Notes: generated from the letters alone by a model not told the origin. A stretch of 12,639 nucleotides of DNA from Naegleria gruberi (GCA_000004985.1 GG739000.1); one strand, 5' to 3'; shown: positions 1,628-10,818, counted from the first letter of the stretch. A program made the numbers and translations.

Positions 1628-3954
1628 NNNNNNNNNNNNNNNNNNNNNNNNNNNNNNNNNNNNNNNNNNNNNNNNNNNNNNNNNNNNNNNNNNNNNNNNN
1701 NNNNNNNNNNNNNNNNNNNNNNNNNNNNNNNNNNNNNNNNNNNNNNNNNNNNNNNNNNNNNNNNNNNNNNNNNNNNNNNNNNNNNNNNNNNNNNNNNNNN
1801 NNNNNNNNNNNNNNNNNNNNNNNNNNNNNNNNNNNNNNNNNNNNNNNNNNNNNNNNNNNNNNNNNNNNNNNNNNNNNNNNNNNNNNNNNNNNNNNNNNNN
1901 NNNNNNNNNNNNNNNNNNNNNNNNNNNNNNNNNNNNNNNNNNNNNNNNNNNNNNNNNNNNNNNNNNNNNNNNNNNNNNNNNNNNNNNNNNNNNNNNNNNN
2001 NNNNNNNNNNNNNNNNNNNNNNNNNNNNNNNNNNNNNNNNNNNNNNNNNNNNNNNNNNNNNNNNNNNNNNNNNNNNNNNNNNNNNNNNNNNNNNNNNNNN
2101 NNNNNNNNNNNNNNNNNNNNNNNNNNNNNNNNNNNNNNNNNNNNNNNNNNNNNNNNNNNNNNNNNNNNNNNNNNNNNNNNNNNNNNNNNNNNNNNNNNNN
2201 NNNNNNNNNNNNNNNNNNNNNNNNNNNNNNNNNNNNNNNNNNNNNNNNNNNNNNNNNNNNNNNNNNNNNNNNNNNNNNNNNNNNNNNNNNNNNNNNNNNN
2301 NNNNNNNNNNNNNNNNNNNNNNNNNNNNNNNNNNNNNNNNNNNNNNNNNNNNNNNNNNNNNNNNNNNNNNNNNNNNNNNNNNNNNNNNNNNNNNNNNNNN
2401 NNNNNNNNNNNNNNNNNNNNNNNNNNNNNNNNNNNNNNNNNNNNNNNNNNNNNNNNNNNNNNNNNNNNNNNNNNNNNNNNNNNNNNNNNNNNNNNNNNNN
2501 NNNNNNNNNNNNNNNNNNNNNNNNNNNNNNNNNNNNNNNNNNNNNNNNNNNNNNNNNNNNNNNNNNNNNNNNNNNNNNNNNNNNNNNNNNNNNNNNNNNN
2601 NNNNNNNNNNNNNNNNNNNNNNNNNNNNNNNNNNNNNNNNNNNNNNNNNNNNNNNNNNNNNNNNNNNNNNNNNNNNNNNNNNNNNNNNNNNNNNNNNNNN
2701 NNNNNNNNNNNNNNNNNNNNNNNNNNNNNNNNNNNNNNNNNNNNNNNNNNNNNNNNNNNNNNNNNNNNNNNNNNNNNNNNNNNNNNNNNNNNNNNNNNNN
2801 NNNNNNNNNNNNNNNNNNNNNNNNNNNNNNNNNNNNNNNNNNNNNNNNNNNNNNNNNNNNNNNNNNNNNNNNNNNNNNNNNNNNNNNNNNNNNNNNNNNN
2901 NNNNNNNNNNNNNNNNNNNNNNNNNNNNNNNNNNNNNNNNNNNNNNNNNNNNNNNNNNNNNNNNNNNNNNNNNNNNNNNNNNNNNNNNNNNNNNNNNNNN
3001 NNNNNNNNNNNNNNNNNNNNNNNNNNNNNNNNNNNNNNNNNNNNNNNNNNNNNNNNNNNNNNNNNNNNNNNNNNNNNNNNNNNNNNNNNNNNNNNNNNNN
3101 NNNNNNNNNNNNNNNNNNNNNNNNNNNNNNNNNNNNNNNNNNNNNNNNNNNNNNNNNNNNNNNNNNNNNNNNNNNNNNNNNNNNNNNNNNNNNNNNNNNN
3201 NNNNNNNNNNNNNNNNNNNNNNNNNNNNNNNNNNNNNNNNNNNNNNNNNNNNNNNNNNNNNNNNNNNNNNNNNNNNNNNNNNNNNNNNNNNNNNNNNNNN
3301 NNNNNNNNNNNNNNNNNNNNNNNNNNNNNNNNNNNNNNNNNNNNNNNNNNNNNNNNNNNNNNNNNNNNNNNNNNNNNNNNNNNNNNNNNNNNNNNNNNNN
3401 NNNNNNNNNNNNNNNNNNNNNNNNNNNNNNNNNNNNNNNNNNNNNNNNNNNNNNNNNNNNNNNNNNNNNNNNNNNNNNNNNNNNNNNNNNNNNNNNNNNN
3501 NNNNNNNNNNNNNNNNNNNNNNNNNNNNNNNNNNNNNNNNNNNNNNNNNNNNNNNNNNNNNNNNNNNNNNNNNNNNNNNNNNNNNNNNNNNNNNNNNNNN
3601 NNNNNNNNNNNNNNNNNNNNNNNNNNNNNNNNNNNNNNNNNNNNNNNNNNNNNNNNNNNNNNNNNNNNNNNNNNNNNNNNNNNNNNNNNNNNNNNNNNNN
3701 NNNNNNNNNNNNNNNNNNNNNNNNNNNNNNNNNNNNNNNNNNNNNNNNNNNNNNNNNNNNNNNNNNNNNNNNNNNNNNNNNNNNNNNNNNNNNNNNNNNN
3801 NNNNNNNNNNNNNNNNNNNNNNNNNNNNNNNNNNNNNNNNNNNNNNNNNNNNNNNNNNNNNNNNNNNNNNNNNNNNNNNNNNNNNNNNNNNNNNNNNNNN
3901 NNNNNNNNNNNNNNNNNNNNNNNNNNNNNNNNNNNNNNNNNNNNNNNNNNNNNN
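1628..3954. other. assembly gap (2327 N)
   Basis: Uninterrupted N run. All six-frame 'ORFs' crossing it (1513-4002, 1595-3970, 1611-3977, 1620-3959) are artefacts of translating N. Confidence 0.99.
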
Positions 3955-4285: not shown

Positions 4286-6175
4286 TTATGGATCCATTTG
4301 AATGAGATTATGCTGTTGTTGATCTTCCTCTTGTTGATGAGATGCAACATGTTGACCTGGAAATGCATTTTGCAATTCTTCTTCATCCTCACTTAAAAAA
4401 TCATAGGATAGTTGCTCTCTGATTTCTCTTGCCTGTGAGGAAGAATTCTTTTTCATGTGATACCACAAGGCCAATAGAACAGCAACCAGGATAGTGGTTG
4501 ATGATGCAATCATTCCAGTTAATGGAAGAATATATCCATAGGATTCCTCTTCCTCAGCTGCTGTTGAATTGGTGCACACATGATTCTTGAATGAAATTCT
4601 GAAACCTTCAGGACAAAATGGAACTGCCTTCATTATGAACCTTTCTGTTTGATCTACAAAGTAGAAGGACAATCCATCAGTTGCAAAACGAACAGAGTGG
4701 AGTAACGCCGAATCGCTTTTAAAAACAAACTCAATCAAAGCATTTTCATCTCCAAGTTTCAAGCGATACACTCTTCCAATTGATGAGGTTATTTTTCGAA
4801 TCAAATACATACAAGTCACCATCATTGGTGTAGTGAACATCTTTAGGTTGAAGAGTGTTTTTGAAGCGTCACTTTCTGTATTGTATCCAGACACTCCAGG
4901 AATACCATAGATAGTAGAAATGATGCCGTCCTTTGAAACTGACATGATCTTGTGTATCTGCAATAACCATTTCGCCTTCAACACTGACAAAGAAGGAGGA
5001 AACTTCTTGAATTTTGGCCTCTGTTGCTGGAAGTCCATCACCCAAGCCACCTGCAACCTTGGTAAGAGTATTTCCTTTTACTTTCCATACGAAACGAGTT
5101 GGTTCGGTAAAGTAAATTTCATCTTCTGTTGGAATAAGAAGTAGTTGTAGCATCAGAACCAACAATTCTCACCAATTTACCATCAACAACCTTACTCACA
5201 AACATTTCATGGGCAACATGTATTTCATCCTTACTGTTAATCAAAACAGATGGTGGCATTTTCACATCGATAAACCTTTCCCAAGTTCCATCTGTTTTAA
5301 GCTTGAAAAGGAATGATCCAAATTTTAAGGCAATAATGAAATCACCATTTGAAAGTACATCAAAGGATGAAATAGAGGAGGTTTTTTCTTGACGAACTAG
5401 TTCCGTTTGACCAGTTTCGGCTTTGACAATAGTCAAAGAATCTAGAAGGCATAGATAAATATCACCATTATCCATTATTTTCATTTTACCTGGCAAAAAT
5501 ATTCTTGATAGATGCTCATATTTGGAATTTACCTTAAGGGTTTCCAAATTCAAAATTTTTAAACTATTGCCCTCAATAAAGAAAATCTGACGTCTAGACC
5601 GTGGGAGGTGAGAAGGATTGACAAATATTTTTATAAAAAATTTAGAAGTCACTCAAAAAACAAAAATTTGTTAAAGTCGAGCCGAAGGTTTATTGGACCA
5701 AGAGTGAGACAGTGTGTTCAAAGTATCAATTACCACTTGTTCTTCTAGAAACAAGTACTTCTGGGTAATTGTTGTTTGTTGTTTTTTTTTGTTGAATATT
5801 TAACGGTCAGAACAGACAACTTTCAGCGGTTTTTGGTTGGCGCGAAATTACCGTGATGTAACATTTTTTAGCTCACCTCCCTCGGTCTACTGACGTCAAT
5901 AGTAATCTCTTGACATTTCCAGTAGCTTGATCAATAACGAAAATCTCCTCTTCTTCTATTAAGACTTTGGTATCATTCCAAGCAAATCTTAGAGACATCC
6001 ATACTGGTTCTCCAATCACCGAATTTGTACCTTCTTCATTATCGGGAGAGATTGTTCCTCCAGCAATTCTCATGGTCCTCCATCTTAATGGAACTTTACT
6101 AACTCTCTCAATATTTGCAACTTGGCTTGTTGATGATGCCTTAATCATTATTTTGCTCCGATGAAATAACAACAT
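4286..6175 (-). CDS. multi-exon gene for a single-pass (type-I-like) membrane protein with a beta-propeller-like repeat ectodomain, a TM helix and an acidic cytoplasmic tail. Proposed exons: 5877..6175, 5181..5593, about 4968..5125, about 4286..4930 (last junction uncertain)
   Basis: ATG at 6175-6173 sits immediately after an in-frame TGA. Exon 1 ends ...CGA GGG AG|GTGAGC (donor at 5876-5875). Acceptor TCTAG|ACGTCAG at 5594 gives a 283-nt intron and an in-frame join (..SVDRGRRQIFF..). The second intron is 55 nt (5126..5180, GTAAAT...CCAACAG) and joins ..VSKVVD|EDEIYFTEP.. in frame. A third frame change near 4931-4967 could be a 37-nt GT-AG element or a real frameshift. The protein has repeated strand-rich blocks (DGKLVRIV, NGDFIIALKFGS, IYFTEP, DGIISTIYGIPG). 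A hydrophobic 23-mer (ILPLTGMIASSTTILVAVLLALW) is followed by KKNSSS..DFLSEDEEEL..QQEEDQQQ. Stop is TAATAA at 4288-4283, overlapping an AATAAA on the minus strand. No N-terminal signal peptide was found in exon 1. Confidence 0.55.
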
Positions 6176-6302
6176 TCATCAACAAAGCAATAGTAATGTA
6201 TAACACGATAGAGGTCCAAATTTTAATGGCTCCAACCCTCTCGATGGAGAATGAGCTCCTAGTAGAAGATCCTCCCTTATTGCAATTGTTTGTTGTCGTG
6301 TG

Positions 6303-6371
6303 CCCGCTAAACACTTACTGTCAAAGCGTGCTGGTACTTTGACGATTTTGCGTCAAGCTATTTTCGTCAAA
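6303..6371. repeat. left motif cluster: 9-mer CCCGCTAAA (6303-6311), then TTGACGATTTT (6339-6349), GCGTCAA (6350-6356) and TTTTCGTCAAA (6361-6371)
   Basis: TTGACGATTTT is identical to 8908-8918 in direct orientation. TTTTCGTCAAA is the exact reverse complement of TTTGACGAAAA at 8995-9005. CCCGCTAAA is the exact reverse complement of TTTAGCGGG at 9032-9040. Confidence 0.6.
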
Positions 6372-6610
6372 CAAGCGAAAAGTTGTCTTAGCAGGAGGGA
6401 ACTTGGAAATTTTTCCAATTTCAAATAACAAATAAATTTCCAAGTCAATAAATTTCAATTTATTAAAAGTATTGATATGCATAATAATGCACAGGAATAT
6501 ATTTCTCTTCATCAGGGAGTTTGACAACAACACATGGGAGCATTTCAAATGCTTCACTTCTACTAATCTCCCTTGTCTTATTGGTGGTGTTGGAAATTAA
6601 GGTAATCTCA

Positions 6611-7615
6611 TTAAAATCTTTTGAAAGATGCCACTTTGAAAACTTCGTTCGTTTTGATATCCTTGATACAATCTAATTCCTTTCTTACAACGTAGTGACC
6701 AACTATACATTCAGAGGCAATAAGAGGTTCATTTAAATCCATTAAATCACATAATTGGCACATATCAAAGTACATGATTGAATATCGAGCAGAATTTGAA
6801 CAAACGTAAGTCTTTGAGAGTGTGAAATTGAGCCCTTCTCCAATAAAAGCAGAATTTACACCAAGAGGGCCGTACATTCTACAAGAATTGACTAACTCAG
6901 TACAAATATGAAAGTTTGGTGTTGCTTTCTTTTCTCCAACCACTTTCTGATAATCAATTAACACTTGAAACAATTCAATCTCAATGTCTCCTAATTTGGA
7001 TAACTGAAATGAGTCTGTCAGCTTATCAATTATAGAGGCAAATCTATGAATTATTTCAACCTTTGATTCTATTTCCTTAAATCCTTCGATATGCGTAAAC
7101 AGCTCTAAATAATAATGACAGATCATGTAAATTTCAATTGCCTTTAGACTGTTCATAATCTGGCCATTTGTGGTCTTTCTAGGATGCTTGTGAAGGAATG
7201 ATGGATACTTTTGTTTCAGAAACAATGTCAAATCTTTCCCAGTATTGAACAGGGATCATTTTCATCATTTCTTGGAAAACTCCTTCATATAATACATGCA
7301 TTGAATCATAGCAACAAATATCTGATGGTGATGGATTCAATTCTTGATCCAAAATTGGTGAAATTGGATGCACAATAGAGTCTCCCTATGCAAAGACATC
7401 TTGATACTCATCTAAACAGCTCACCATTTGATTAATCATTTCATTCATATTTCTGACTGCGTGTTTATATCTAGCCAATTCTTTCTTAATTCTTTCATTC
7501 TCATCAACTAAATCATTATAGTGTTTCAAAAATGCAGAATTTGCAAATGATTCCGGAACTTCATTTGAATCATCATTGCTTGAAGAAGCCTTCTTGTTGG
7601 AAGGTTCATTGTAAG
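6611..7615 (-). pseudogene. transposase-derived ORF, C-terminal-region-like, recalling plant En/Spm-CACTA TNP2 (Transposase_21 + DUF4218) or fungal KDZ transposases. The reading frame is disrupted by an in-frame TAG (7388-7386) and a +1 shift near 7180-7230
   Basis: Three collinear minus-strand ORF pieces: 7425-7615, 7182-7385 (same frame, separated only by TAG) and 6611-7231 (shifted frame). Motifs, recalled from memory and not searched: ...DICCYDSMHVLYEGVFQEMM... resembles the D-x-MH-[IV]-EKN-V block. About 150 aa downstream, ...ATPNFHICTELVNSCRMYGPLGVNSAFIGEGLNFT...NSARYSIMYFD... resembles PK[ML]H-x-LVHL...GP...WMYPFER...ARPEGSIAEGY of DUF4218. There is no DDE-region counterpart upstream; that space is taken by a + strand ORF. 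This fits a truncated, decayed copy. Confidence 0.38.
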
Positions 7616-7722
7616 AAGAAGCATTCTTGGTAGAAGACTTTGGTCATGATGATAAAACCATTGTGCTCACCCATAAAGAGAGAGCAAAGATTTGTGAATT
7701 AGGTGAGAAAACCTCTCAAATA

Positions 7723-8070
7723 ATGCATGTTTGCTCTACCTACTTTGAAAAGTCAATTACAAAGCTTAACCAAGATGAAAGAAAGCTATTGTTTAAGATA
7801 ATATTTGATGCAATGGGTTGGAAAATAAGCAAACACAAGAACAAACTCAGTAAATACAGAGGTGTCTTTAGAACAATTGCAAGCAACCTTAAGAAAAAGA
7901 AGGGTGCAAAACAAAATGAATCAGTAAAGAAGAAGAAGACAGAACTTGAGGAGACCATCTCAAAAAAGAGAAAAGAAAGAGAGGAAAACAATGATTCTGG
8001 ATCATCCTCTTGTGAGGAAGAAACCATTGAAGAGGATTCCACTGATGATATGAGTGATGATGAATGTTGA
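7723..8070 (+). CDS. small Lys/Glu-rich protein (115 aa from the first ATG; frame open from 7615) with a basic KKKK/KRK core and an acidic Ser/Asp C-terminal tail (..SSSCEEETIEEDSTDDMSDDEC*)
   Basis: The 147-codon stop-free frame 7627-8070 has strongly biased charged composition. The opposite-strand ORF 7740-8153 is a poly-F/L/S antisense shadow. AATAAA at 8109-8114 lies 39 nt after the TGA (8068-8070). First ATG is at 7723. A GGTGAG at 7702-7707 could mark an upstream splice donor, so the 5' end is uncertain. Confidence 0.5.
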   Translation: MHVCSTYFEKSITKLNQDERKLLFKIIFDAMGWKISKHKNKLSKYRGVFRTIASNLKKKKGAKQNESVKKKKTELEETISKKRKEREENNDSGSSSCEEETIEEDSTDDMSDDEC

Positions 8071-8108
8071 TTGTAAAATGTTGGGTTATTAAATGGGAAT
8101 TTATTTTT

Positions 8109-8114
8109 AATAAA
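8109..8114 (+). other. polyadenylation signal AATAAA for the 7723-8070 gene
   Basis: Canonical hexamer 39 nt downstream of the stop, inside an A/T-rich tract. Confidence 0.4.
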
Positions 8115-8278
8115 AAAATGTCTACACATCAACTCCCTCATCATATCATACAAAACTGTCGGTTAGTACTACAACATTATTTTTACTACAATTTAAAATC
8201 ATCAGTGATCACTCATTAAATATTGAATAGTATCATTAATTTGTTAATACGATAATTGTTGGCGGAGTTTTATTGTTT

Positions 8279-8380
8279 ATTGGTTTGTTGTATTTAAATT
8301 TCTTAATTTCTTAATTTTTTAATTATTGTTGTTAGTTGGATTTATAAAGATTTTATTCTTCGAAATTGGTTTGTTGTATT
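8279..8380. repeat. 16-bp direct repeat ATTGGTTTGTTGTATT (8279-8294 and 8365-8380) flanking a tandem TCTTAATT x2 (8299-8314)
   Basis: Exact matches read from the sequence; AT-rich intergenic DNA downstream of the 7723-8070 gene. Confidence 0.6.
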
Positions 8381-8747
8381 ATTTTCATATTATATGATTT
8401 TACCTGCTACGGATCATCAAAATTATTCATCACAAGAAATTAGGTAATTTGTTATAATTCAATTTGTGCTAAACAGCACGATTTATATGCAAGCAACAGA
8501 TTTTGAACAGAAAACAATGTAAGTAATTTTGATTTATTATCATTAATTTTGAATGTAACTGAAGAGGTGAGTGATATTTCATCAGTTGGAGTGAGGATGA
8601 GGAGTGTAGATATTTTTTTCGGTTGGAAATTTGGAATGGAAGTGGATCTAATAATAGATGAGTTTGGAACTTGGAAATTTTACAAGATTTTGGAGTAAAT
8701 AATTGCTGGAATTTAGTCAATAATTGACAATAATTATTATGAATTTT

Positions 8748-9040
8748 TTGACGTAATTATTGATGTTTTTTCATCAATATTTGATACAAAACATTATCAA
8801 TTTATTATCAATTTTTGACGTCAAAAATTGATAATAAATCATTAAGAATTGACGATAATTCTTGACGTCAATTGCGCGTTAATTTGGAATTTTTCTCCCA
8901 ACACTTGTTGACGATTTTATTATGCTTTAAGCATCAATTTTTAACATTTTTCAATAAACTTTATTTCATAATTTTGCAATCTGATACGTTAAAATTTGAC
9001 GAAAAAATTGTTAAAATTATCATCAAAATAATTTAGCGGG
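8748..9040. repeat. right motif cluster: at least 6 TTGACG cores (8748, 8815, 8849, 8863, 8908, 8996), a TGACGTCA palindrome (8864-8871), an 8-bp inverted repeat AATTGACG/CGTCAATT (8847-8854/8866-8873) and terminal 9-mer TTTAGCGGG (9032-9040)
   Basis: Direct count in the sequence. TTGACG is expected about 3 times in the whole readable window on both strands at this base composition. It occurs about 10 times, and all copies fall in these two ~300-bp regions. Confidence 0.75.
8800..8839. repeat. 40-bp perfect palindrome ATTTATTATCAATTTTTGACGTCAAAAATTGATAATAAAT centred on GACGTC
   Basis: Checked base by base: 8800-8819 is the exact reverse complement of 8820-8839. The palindrome breaks at 8799/8840. 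Confidence 0.95.
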
Positions 9041-9222
9041 GTGTTGAGAAGAAATTTTTTTTTTTAAAATAATATGGTTGGTTATCTTCCGAGAAACTGG
9101 GAATTCTTTTTCGGTTTGGATTAAGTAATATACCCTAACGAACACAATCACATCCAATTTTTAACTATAAGGCAACGCTGTTTTTGGTCTGTATATGAAG
9201 AATTTTTAATAATGAATGTGAA

Positions 9223-9293
9223 GCGTCGATGGTTTAGTGGTAGAATACGGCGTTGCCATCGCCGTGACCCGGGTTCAATTCCCGGTCGACGCA
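9223..9293 (+). tRNA. tRNA-Gly (anticodon GCC), 71 nt
   Basis: GCGTCGA acceptor 5' arm pairs with TCGACGC at 9286-9292, with discriminator A at 9293. The D-arm is GTTT/AGTGGTA/GAAT, matching the A box TTTAGTGGTAG. The anticodon stem CGGCG/CGCCG carries loop TTGCCAT, giving GCC. There is a 4-nt variable loop. The T-arm CCGGG-TTCAATT-CCCGG matches the B box GGTTCAATTCC. No CCA is encoded. The anticodon arm ACGTTGCCATCG matches yeast tRNA-Gly(GCC) as I recall it. Confidence 0.93.
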
Positions 9294-9302
9294 TGAAGTA
9301 TC

Positions 9303-9307
9303 TTTTT
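9303..9307 (+). terminator. RNA polymerase III terminator (T5 run) 10 nt after the tRNA 3' end
   Basis: TTTTT at 9303-9307 on the coding strand, directly downstream of the tRNA. Confidence 0.55.
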
Positions 9308-9572
9308 ATTCCTTCGTTGTTGAAGTAATTTTAATTATTTTTCTACCACTCATGGAAGACATGTATTTGTACAATAATCTGTATTTTCTCTCAATTTAGA
9401 ACAGTAATCATTGAGATATTCACCTCCTTCCAAATAGCATTTTTTAACCTAAAAAATATGCTAAAAAAAGATGCCGACTAACTTTTTAACAACAACAATA
9501 CAGATTGATCTCCTGGAAACATGCCGACAACATGATTCTATCACCAATGGATTTAACGATTCCCAATGAGAT

Positions 9573-10818
9573 NNNNNNNNNNNNNNNNNNNNNNNNNNNN
9601 NNNNNNNNNNNNNNNNNNNNNNNNNNNNNNNNNNNNNNNNNNNNNNNNNNNNNNNNNNNNNNNNNNNNNNNNNNNNNNNNNNNNNNNNNNNNNNNNNNNN
9701 NNNNNNNNNNNNNNNNNNNNNNNNNNNNNNNNNNNNNNNNNNNNNNNNNNNNNNNNNNNNNNNNNNNNNNNNNNNNNNNNNNNNNNNNNNNNNNNNNNNN
9801 NNNNNNNNNNNNNNNNNNNNNNNNNNNNNNNNNNNNNNNNNNNNNNNNNNNNNNNNNNNNNNNNNNNNNNNNNNNNNNNNNNNNNNNNNNNNNNNNNNNN
9901 NNNNNNNNNNNNNNNNNNNNNNNNNNNNNNNNNNNNNNNNNNNNNNNNNNNNNNNNNNNNNNNNNNNNNNNNNNNNNNNNNNNNNNNNNNNNNNNNNNNN
10001 NNNNNNNNNNNNNNNNNNNNNNNNNNNNNNNNNNNNNNNNNNNNNNNNNNNNNNNNNNNNNNNNNNNNNNNNNNNNNNNNNNNNNNNNNNNNNNNNNNNN
10101 NNNNNNNNNNNNNNNNNNNNNNNNNNNNNNNNNNNNNNNNNNNNNNNNNNNNNNNNNNNNNNNNNNNNNNNNNNNNNNNNNNNNNNNNNNNNNNNNNNNN
10201 NNNNNNNNNNNNNNNNNNNNNNNNNNNNNNNNNNNNNNNNNNNNNNNNNNNNNNNNNNNNNNNNNNNNNNNNNNNNNNNNNNNNNNNNNNNNNNNNNNNN
10301 NNNNNNNNNNNNNNNNNNNNNNNNNNNNNNNNNNNNNNNNNNNNNNNNNNNNNNNNNNNNNNNNNNNNNNNNNNNNNNNNNNNNNNNNNNNNNNNNNNNN
10401 NNNNNNNNNNNNNNNNNNNNNNNNNNNNNNNNNNNNNNNNNNNNNNNNNNNNNNNNNNNNNNNNNNNNNNNNNNNNNNNNNNNNNNNNNNNNNNNNNNNN
10501 NNNNNNNNNNNNNNNNNNNNNNNNNNNNNNNNNNNNNNNNNNNNNNNNNNNNNNNNNNNNNNNNNNNNNNNNNNNNNNNNNNNNNNNNNNNNNNNNNNNN
10601 NNNNNNNNNNNNNNNNNNNNNNNNNNNNNNNNNNNNNNNNNNNNNNNNNNNNNNNNNNNNNNNNNNNNNNNNNNNNNNNNNNNNNNNNNNNNNNNNNNNN
10701 NNNNNNNNNNNNNNNNNNNNNNNNNNNNNNNNNNNNNNNNNNNNNNNNNNNNNNNNNNNNNNNNNNNNNNNNNNNNNNNNNNNNNNNNNNNNNNNNNNNN
10801 NNNNNNNNNNNNNNNNNN
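9573..10818. other. assembly gap (1246 N)
   Basis: N run. ORFs 9486-10841, 9505-10848 and 9566-10912, and the 9553-10818 part of ORF 9553-11898, are artefacts. Confidence 0.99.

Follow-up and report, generated by a model that had tools for sequence, protein, structure and literature searches.

The window analysed here, a 12,639-nt stretch of Naegleria gruberi DNA (GCA_000004985.1, GG739000.1) with two N runs at 1628-3954 and 9573-10818, carries a transposase gene remnant, an inverted segment, the 3′ part of an accessory protein gene (ORF2) and, beyond the latter, a dense array of TTGACG motifs, followed by a tRNA-Gly(GCC) gene (Table 1). A 9-bp terminal inverted repeat brackets the transposase remnant and ORF2, and the larger of two TTGACG clusters lies on the ORF2 side, as it also does in a related element of N. 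lovaniensis described below.

Table 1. Coordinates of the features at the locus, counted from the first letter of the window.
Feature	Position	Strand	Remarks
GTG outside left terminus	6300..6302		Directly outside
Left terminal inverted repeat CCCGCTAAA	6303..6311	+	9-bp
Small TTGACG cluster	6339, 6351, 6365	+, -, -	Transposase-side end; spans 6339-6370
TTGGAAATTT, left end	6403, 6434	+, -	Within 6398..6445; second motif common to both ends
Transposase gene remnant	6466..7364	-	Matches P0041 (N. lovaniensis, 786 aa) at about residues 485-786 (tblastn)
Inverted segment, 277 bp	7367..7643		Versus L001 4838-5098 (blastn)
ORF2 3′ part (accessory protein)	7644..8070	+	Points towards main array
TTGGAAATTT, right end, twice	8623, 8671 (8623..8680)	+	Inner edge of right subterminal region
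Imperfect 49-bp palindrome (76%)	8710..8758		Contains GTCAATAATTGAC
Main TTGACG array	8748-9001	both	8 matches, 6 physical sites
TTGACG in main array	8748, 8815, 8849, 8862, 8908, 8996	+	
TTGACG in main array	8819, 8866	-	
TTAACG variant in main array	8877, 8987		10 motifs together with TTGACG
Hairpin ATTGATG-TTTTTT-CATCAAT	8759-8778		
Perfect 40-bp palindrome, ATTTATTATCAATTTTTGAC followed by GTCAAAAATTGATAATAAAT	8800-8839		Two 20-bp units ATTTATTATCAATTTTTGAC head to head on GACGTC
TGACGTCA copies	8863-8870, 8816-8823		Second copy inside the 40-bp palindrome
Second head-to-head dimer TTGACGTCAA	8862-8871		Within 8-bp inverted repeat
8-bp inverted repeat, AATTGACG / CGTCAATT	8847-8854 / 8866-8873		
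Right terminal inverted repeat TTTAGCGGG	9032..9040	-	Reverse complement of CCCGCTAAA
GTG outside right terminus	9041..9043		Partner of 6300-6302
tRNA-Gly(GCC)	9223-9293	+	Sole Rfam match

TTGACG motifs and palindromes

Strand-wise, TTGACG matches the window 14 times, corresponding to 12 physical sites, against an expectation of 2.15 ± 1.42; none of 200 dinucleotide-preserving shuffles got to 14. A preliminary description of this DNA had reported the excess, which is real, but with about 10 copies where about three were expected, and its count of copies has to be replaced by ours. Its statement that all copies fall in two short regions was slightly overstated, given that 11 matches are clustered and three (5389, 5894 and 11334) are scattered outside both clusters. 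The 260 bp in which it saw seven copies are indeed dense, and hold eight by strand-wise counting, i.e., six physical sites. The density of TTGACG in the main array is about 31 per kb. The same region is rich in ATTGAT/ATCAAT copies, and the k-mers enriched in it relative to the remaining window are TTGACG(T/A), ATTGAC, ATTGAT and AATTGA. As a background, we counted a single TTGACG in 5.5 kb from the N. gruberi-like metagenome contig L001, and 12 in N. lovaniensis host DNA (44.5 kb, 0.27 per kb), a scarcity which speaks against the genome-wide bias towards AT-rich k-mers that the preliminary description had named as a possible refutation. Used as a protein query, 525 aa of concatenated open frames from 8455-9478 returned no matches.

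Further short sequences are common to the two ends. Besides TTGGAAATTT, the 16-mer GGAACTTGGAAATTTT, located within 6398..6445, is found again at 8666-8681, and two inverted matches relate one end to the other: a 12-bp match between 6434-6445 and 8669-8680 (AAATTTCCAAGT / ACTTGGAAATTT) and an 11-bp match between 6361-6371 and 8995-9005 (TTTTCGTCAAA / TTTGACGAAAA), which stand in mirror order at the two ends. We also considered an LTR-like direct repeat between 6355-6476 and 8607-8751 and rejected it: the alignment is weak (score 69; shuffles 41 ± 7, maximum 65) and the similarity is better explained by the short motifs common to both ends.

The array is also rich in symmetry. The 40-bp palindrome at 8800-8839 proved perfect on re-check and its centre is TTGACGTCAA, the same head-to-head dimer that recurs nearby, while TGACG half-sites lie at 8749, 8850, 8909 and 8997. 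The stem-loop with a T6 loop was likewise recovered at its expected place, and the CRE-type palindrome is nested in an 8-bp inverted repeat as had been described, its coordinates having been one base off. A hairpin prediction, one of the checks originally proposed, returned a strong fold for 8740-8880 as single-stranded DNA (-27.2 kcal/mol, z = -5.2 versus shuffles). The sequence flanking the 40-bp palindrome is not mirrored, and an exact 22-mer from the palindrome core found no match in viral contigs or in JGI metagenome contigs.

A damaged element and its intact relative

Boundaries of the element in the window were defined by the inverted repeat together with cross-species comparison. The terminal 9-mer has exactly two matches in the window, exact or with one mismatch, and these are inverted partners; the CCCGC pentamer occurs only twice on both window strands, at 6303 and, inverted, at 9036-9040. 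From this comparison the array appears to sit in a 2.7-kb internally deleted and rearranged DNA transposon spanning 6303-9040. The TTGACG clusters lie 36-67 nt (left) and 35-292 nt (right) inside its termini. The GTG/GTG flanks may be a 3-bp target-site duplication, whereas the N. lovaniensis relatives have duplications of 2 bp; a 2-bp rule fails in the window with the exact termini, where TG stands against GT.

The coding content of the element is degenerate. In the transposase remnant the reading frame is broken near 7225 and at 6620-6669 and the N-terminal ~480 residues are absent, but the remaining part compares with residues 531-731 of the N. lovaniensis transposase P0041 at 51% identity (BLASTP, E 2e-65). 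On the minus strand, the ORF at 6611-7231 is 98% identical to the N. gruberi protein P0001 from a 508-kb scaffold and 65% identical to P0002 from a 712-kb scaffold, and on the plus strand the ORF at 7627-8070 is 100% identical to the N. gruberi gene model P0004. Judged by these comparisons, the ORFs of the window element are members of a small multi-copy family. The window ORF2 aligns to residues 439-489 of a 506-aa N. lovaniensis ORF2 (E 2e-4), and ORF2 proteins from five family members show weak but colinear conservation. A Pfam search with nine window ORFs gave nothing useful, the transposase fragment having no direct match, and a PDB sequence search with ORF2 and P0041 gave no matches; in Pfam and PDB sequence searches, no recognisable DNA-binding domain was seen in ORF2 or in the transposase N-terminus. 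No confirmed relative of the window transposase fragment was found among JGI metagenome contigs.

Comparison with the N. gruberi-like contig L001, in which the transposase still has its N-terminal half and ORF2 is longer, allows the damage to be described. The window is without the ~2.3 kb equivalent of L001 2559-4837, and the adjoining 277-bp segment is inverted; in the same region, residues 1-27 of protein P0005 map to the minus strand and residues 28-101 to the plus strand (tblastn). Taken together, the ~2.3-kb loss and the 277-bp inversion relative to L001 indicate that the window copy is a damaged, non-autonomous derivative.

N. lovaniensis harbours three full copies of a related element; two of them match at 100% over 7060 bp, with 98.6-99.8% identity for the third. 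As the flanks of the three copies are unrelated, an element of ~7.1 kb is defined. It ends in 5′-CCCGCACCCC...AAGAAGCGGG-3′, i.e., CCCGC...GCGGG, and is bordered by 2-bp target duplications in each of the three copies (TT/TT, AT/AT and GA/GA). Its 506-aa ORF2 and 786-aa transposase are transcribed divergently from the centre with their 3′ ends facing the termini. Of its 11 TTGACG copies, seven lie at nt 117-282 from the ORF2-side end and two at 70-102 nt from the other end, which leaves two in the 6.7-kb interior; counting TTRACG, there are nine and four at the ends versus six in that interior. The ORF2-side array contains a 33-bp motif unit in three tandem copies (at least 91% identity) plus a degenerate fourth (70%), and also has the inverted pair CGTCAAATTGACG.

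The two arrays can be aligned with each other. When the reverse complement of 8641-9040 is compared with the first 400 nt, on the ORF2 side, of the element in N. lovaniensis, a colinear alignment beginning at about nt 10 scores 137. Shuffles score 63.8 ± 10, natural N. lovaniensis segments of 400 nt (n = 486) score 58.5 ± 14.1 and at most 97, and other stretches of the window reach no more than 94 against the same ORF2-side end. An extended motif consensus, WWWTTGACGWMAAAA, is common to the N. gruberi window and N. lovaniensis. In a third relative, L010, the first letters are CCCGCAC, four TTAACG lie within 190 nt of this terminus and TTGACG is absent, and in the more distant relatives L006, L007, L008 and L009 no TTGACG arrays were present in the retrieved sequence. 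The family is small: an exhaustive HMMER search of 1.84 billion representative proteins, with a 312-aa paralogue as query, returned no more than 37 relatives, some of them from N. gruberi and N. lovaniensis.

We consider it very probable that a non-autonomous, rearranged transposon of the CMC (CACTA/EnSpm-Mirage-Chapaev) type spans 6303-9040 and that the array is the subterminal repeat region at one of its ends. TTGACG/TTRACG motifs crowd the outermost ~300 nt on the ORF2 side, and the ~70 nt next to the transposase-side terminus have three further TTGACG. Transposon subterminal binding sites had been among the candidates first put forward, and as far as location is concerned this has held up, the main array lying just inside a CMC-type terminus and the N. 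lovaniensis element having the same array near the same CCCGC terminus; that the sites are bound is suggested by analogy with known systems. By analogy to TnpA of En/Spm, the motifs would be probable binding sites for an element-encoded protein, for which the N-terminal region of the transposase or ORF2 is a candidate, with TTGACGAAAA and head-to-head TTGACGTCAA as candidate binding-site sequences. Such binding would mark the ends, pair them and, for cut-and-paste transposition, bring the transposase to the short repeats at the termini, and the head-to-head TTGACGTCAA dimers, including the one at the centre of the 40-bp palindrome, could be sites for a dimer.

Origin of the palindrome and other readings of the array

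At the position of the 40-bp palindrome, the N. lovaniensis element has its 33-bp tandem repeats; both sequences carry TTTTTTCGTCAAT and the perfect palindrome is without counterpart in N. lovaniensis. The direct tandem copies at the aligned spot suggest that this part of the array evolves by local duplication. We think it most likely that one 20-bp motif unit was recently duplicated in place, in inverted orientation, to give the palindrome, which would then not be a conserved device.

The motifs themselves invite a different reading, in which the array is a host cis-regulatory module whose CRE-type sites serve a Naegleria bZIP protein as enhancer, promoter or insulator, either independently of the transposon or after exaptation. 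The core is identical to that of CRE (TGACGTCA) and of plant as-1/TGA (TGACG) bZIP sites; there are two perfect TTGACGTCAA palindromes and several TGACG half-sites within 260 bp, and the 6339-6370 cluster stands just upstream of a minus-strand host gene with ORF starts near 6175-6314. However, CRE sites are found upstream of Pol II genes, whereas those in the window are located in a transposon end whose array recurs in the N. lovaniensis element, there at a fixed distance from mobile-element termini in three genomic contexts. Both clusters are inside the CCCGC...GCGGG boundaries, and no Pol II gene starts by the main array: ORF2 ends at 8070 facing it, the closest ORFs have their ends here, no ORF or known RNA starts at it, and what follows is the tRNA gene, much as the preliminary description had it. 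Its doubt about a simple promoter was also well placed, as both element genes point their 3′ ends towards the motif arrays, which makes a promoter function for them unlikely. Because the element carries these sites with it and they lie at the 3′ ends of genes, we do not primarily explain them by a role as host promoter or enhancer, and we regard a host module as improbable. In the literature we found no paper on TGACGTCA/TTGACG in Naegleria regulation, nor on these elements.

It is very unlikely that the array matters as structural DNA, that is, that the palindrome and hairpins extrude a cruciform acting as a replication origin, recombination hotspot or fragile site. In favour of this reading, the palindrome is perfect, its surroundings fold strongly as a single strand, and the element has undergone an inversion as well as a deletion. 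Against this, origin-type features are absent, what is enriched is a motif, TTGACG, found on either side of the palindrome as well as at the opposite end, and not structure, and N. lovaniensis has direct tandem repeats at the aligned position, so the palindrome is not a conserved requirement; the cruciform or origin-like function proposed earlier found no support except for the palindrome's ability to fold. A link to the tRNA gene, as its upstream control region, a Pol III boundary or a landing pad for tRNA-targeting elements, is hardly to be expected either. The tRNA-Gly(GCC) gene is close, the last motif being 218 bp and the element end 183 bp away from it, but the terminus at 9040 separates it from the array, and one insertion near one tRNA makes no pattern. 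The surroundings of the three N. lovaniensis copies are free of tRNA genes to a distance of about 10 kb, as is L001, so the ~20-kb loci of the former and the contig show no fixed short distance of the kind seen in tRNA-targeting elements, and the bZIP-bound insulator or hotspot near a tRNA gene suggested at first found no support. The tRNA-Gly is an incidental neighbour of the insertion site. The least credible reading is an artefact or chance product, in which AT-rich k-mer bias inflates the motif count or a fold-back misassembly makes the palindrome. While the sequence comes from a small scaffold of 12.6 kb that is interrupted by two gaps and covers a repeat-rich, rearranged region, the motif count is reached by none of the shuffles, and the background amounts to ~0.2-0.3 per kb in 50 kb of Naegleria DNA; the palindrome is just 40 bp long, and its differing flanks both align colinearly to the related element, which argues against a fold-back assembly artefact.

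Two further candidates were rejected. A giant-virus AAAATTGA promoter or hairpin terminator has no viral match to go with it and transposon homology explains the region, and a Helitron 3′ hairpin would require another end structure.

Family placement and meaning for Naegleria

The subterminal repeat region of a transposon, as we read the array, can be compared with those of described superfamilies. RepeatModeler has annotated CMC-EnSpm elements in N. lovaniensis (PMC6125883). In our searches the N. lovaniensis transposase P0041 scored 27.7 bits against Pfam Transposase_21/tnp2 (E 1.9e-6), just below the cut-off of 28.6, a distant relative scored 31.2 bits, above the cut-off, and distant relatives reached 23-25 bits with DUF4218 (cut-off 27) and also matched DUF1258, a Caenorhabditis family. 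CMC membership of the window element is, on these profile scores of its relatives, borderline. A match to DUF1258 together with Transposase_21 and DUF4218 is a likeness to Mirage/Chapaev. By eye, the C(2)C motif is present after the ADLPA/second catalytic Asp region (CHLC in P0041 and P0007, CHIC in L001), but H(3-4)H is not evident: a single His (NFHIASE, NFHICTE) stands before the catalytic Glu where it is expected, and the termini differ from the CA...TG of Mirage/Chapaev.

CACTA elements have short terminal repeats and asymmetric arrays of motifs in two orientations, which are required in cis. The window element and that of N. lovaniensis have this anatomy, with direct and inverted motifs near both termini, asymmetrically distributed. 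The resemblance to En/Spm, maize En-1 and soybean Tgmt* lies in direct and inverted short motifs within a few hundred nt of the ends, and CACTA elements in general are also alike in palindromes or stem-loops formed by inverted pairs, in short terminal inverted repeats, in a DDE transposase that on the borderline profile scores above would be tnp2-like, and in a motif that diverges between related elements, here TTGACG versus TTAACG. Tgmt* has four repeats in 159 bp at one end versus 24 in 732 bp at the other, forming two and 12 palindromes, and TnpA-type proteins bind CACTA subterminal repeats (PMC2613891). The asymmetry of the window element is comparable, with three versus eight strand-wise TTGACG (10 with TTAACG), but the repeats of the Naegleria element are known from sequence, whereas those of CACTA elements are known to be bound.

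There are other differences as well. Elements of the CMCT clade (CMC with Transib) usually have 5′-CA...TG-3′ termini and target duplications of 2-5 bp (PMC12730594). The latter range accommodates the 2 bp of all three N. lovaniensis copies and the 3 bp (GTG/GTG) of the window, but in place of CA...TG, or of the CACTA...TAGTG of CACTA elements, the termini are CCCGC...GCGGG in the window, in N. lovaniensis and in L010. CACTA elements duplicate 3 bp, while the intact N. lovaniensis copies duplicate 2 bp; their motif measures 12-17 bp, in contrast to a conserved Naegleria core of 6-7 bp (~15 bp extended); and En/Spm makes TnpA and TnpD from one alternatively spliced transcript, whereas Naegleria has two separate divergent genes.

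These differences allow us to speculate, as a tentative possibility that we hold to be rather doubtful, that the element represents an undescribed CMC-like lineage with little occurrence outside Naegleria and a few uncultured eukaryotes, having CCCGC...GCGGG termini with 2-bp duplications, a dedicated accessory ORF2 of no known fold and a TTRACG recognition that doubles as a host CRE when dimerised (TTGACGTCAA). If so, every insertion would bring complete bZIP-type sites to a new place, and the element might exploit or imitate the binding of host bZIP proteins.

The type of structure is already known and general concepts are unchanged, but the result is useful for the annotation of Naegleria, whose mobile elements are barely described. 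What was a motif cluster is now annotated as the end of a DNA transposon, with boundaries, termini, a target-duplication length, the candidate cis-acting motif TTGACG/TTRACG and a conserved accessory gene. It also calls for caution, as CRE-like palindromes in Naegleria intergenic DNA may be transposon-borne and not host regulatory. The intact relative in N. lovaniensis, recently active to judge from its two 100% identical 7-kb copies, is a potential experimental or genetic tool.

Mosaic and identical copies of the transposon family

Copies of the transposon family are mosaics, judging by a comparison of the window with L001, a metagenome contig carrying N. gruberi-like sequence. Window positions 7196-7748 match L001 with 92-99% sequence identity, and a 277-bp segment in this stretch (7367-7643) is in inverted orientation relative to L001. 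The window is missing ~2.3 kb found in L001, comprising the N-terminal half of the transposase and the 5′ part of ORF2, the accessory second gene, whereas L001 is missing the C-terminal half of the transposase and continues into a BTB-domain gene.

Two copies of the related 7.1-kb element of N. lovaniensis, on the separate contigs L003 and L004, are 100% identical over 7060 bp (5449-12508 in L003 and L004), and both transposase and ORF2 are intact. Such identity between copies on different contigs, together with the integrity of both genes, suggests very recent transposition of an element that is possibly still active.

Near the right end of one of these copies there is a 422-bp insertion (L003 12509-12930), at a site where the other copy shows the 9 bp cgttaaaat. 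It is bounded by 12-bp terminal inverted repeats (TATGGCGGCGCA / TGCGCCGCCATA) with an inverted pair (CTGTCAGATATTCGTCAA / TTGACGAATATCTGACAG) immediately internal to them, and on these grounds it is a MITE-like element. TTGACG is also found close to each of its ends.

Repeats in the window

The exact 16-mer listed below belongs to a ~30-bp direct repeat whose copies are 83% identical.

Repeat features of the window
Feature	Sequence	Window position	Location
Inverted repeat, arms ~26 bp	CTGACGTCTAGACCGTGGGAGGTGAG / CTCACCTCCCTCGGTCTACTGACGTCA	5587-5898	Around putative intron of − strand gene
Exact 16-mer, two copies 86 bp apart	ATTGGTTTGTTGTATT	8279-8294 and 8365-8380	Non-coding, between ORF2 and the TTGACG array

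Read on the − strand, one arm of the inverted repeat contains the splice donor GTGAGC and the other the acceptor TCTAG, and removal of the putative intron preserves the frame (...VDRGR|RQIFFIEG...). TGACGTC is present at the outer ends of the repeat. The arrangement looks like a small ‘introner’-like inverted-repeat element that either turned into an intron or brought one with it; no further copies were found among the ten loci compared.

A subterminal motif variant

A third relative, L010 (assembly GCA_050043615.1), begins with CCCGCAC, a terminus as in its relatives, and its subterminal region (214-420) carries TTAACG and ATTAAT-type motifs, with TTGACG absent. The shared terminus alongside TTAACG in place of TTGACG hints at co-evolution of the subterminal motif and its reader protein.
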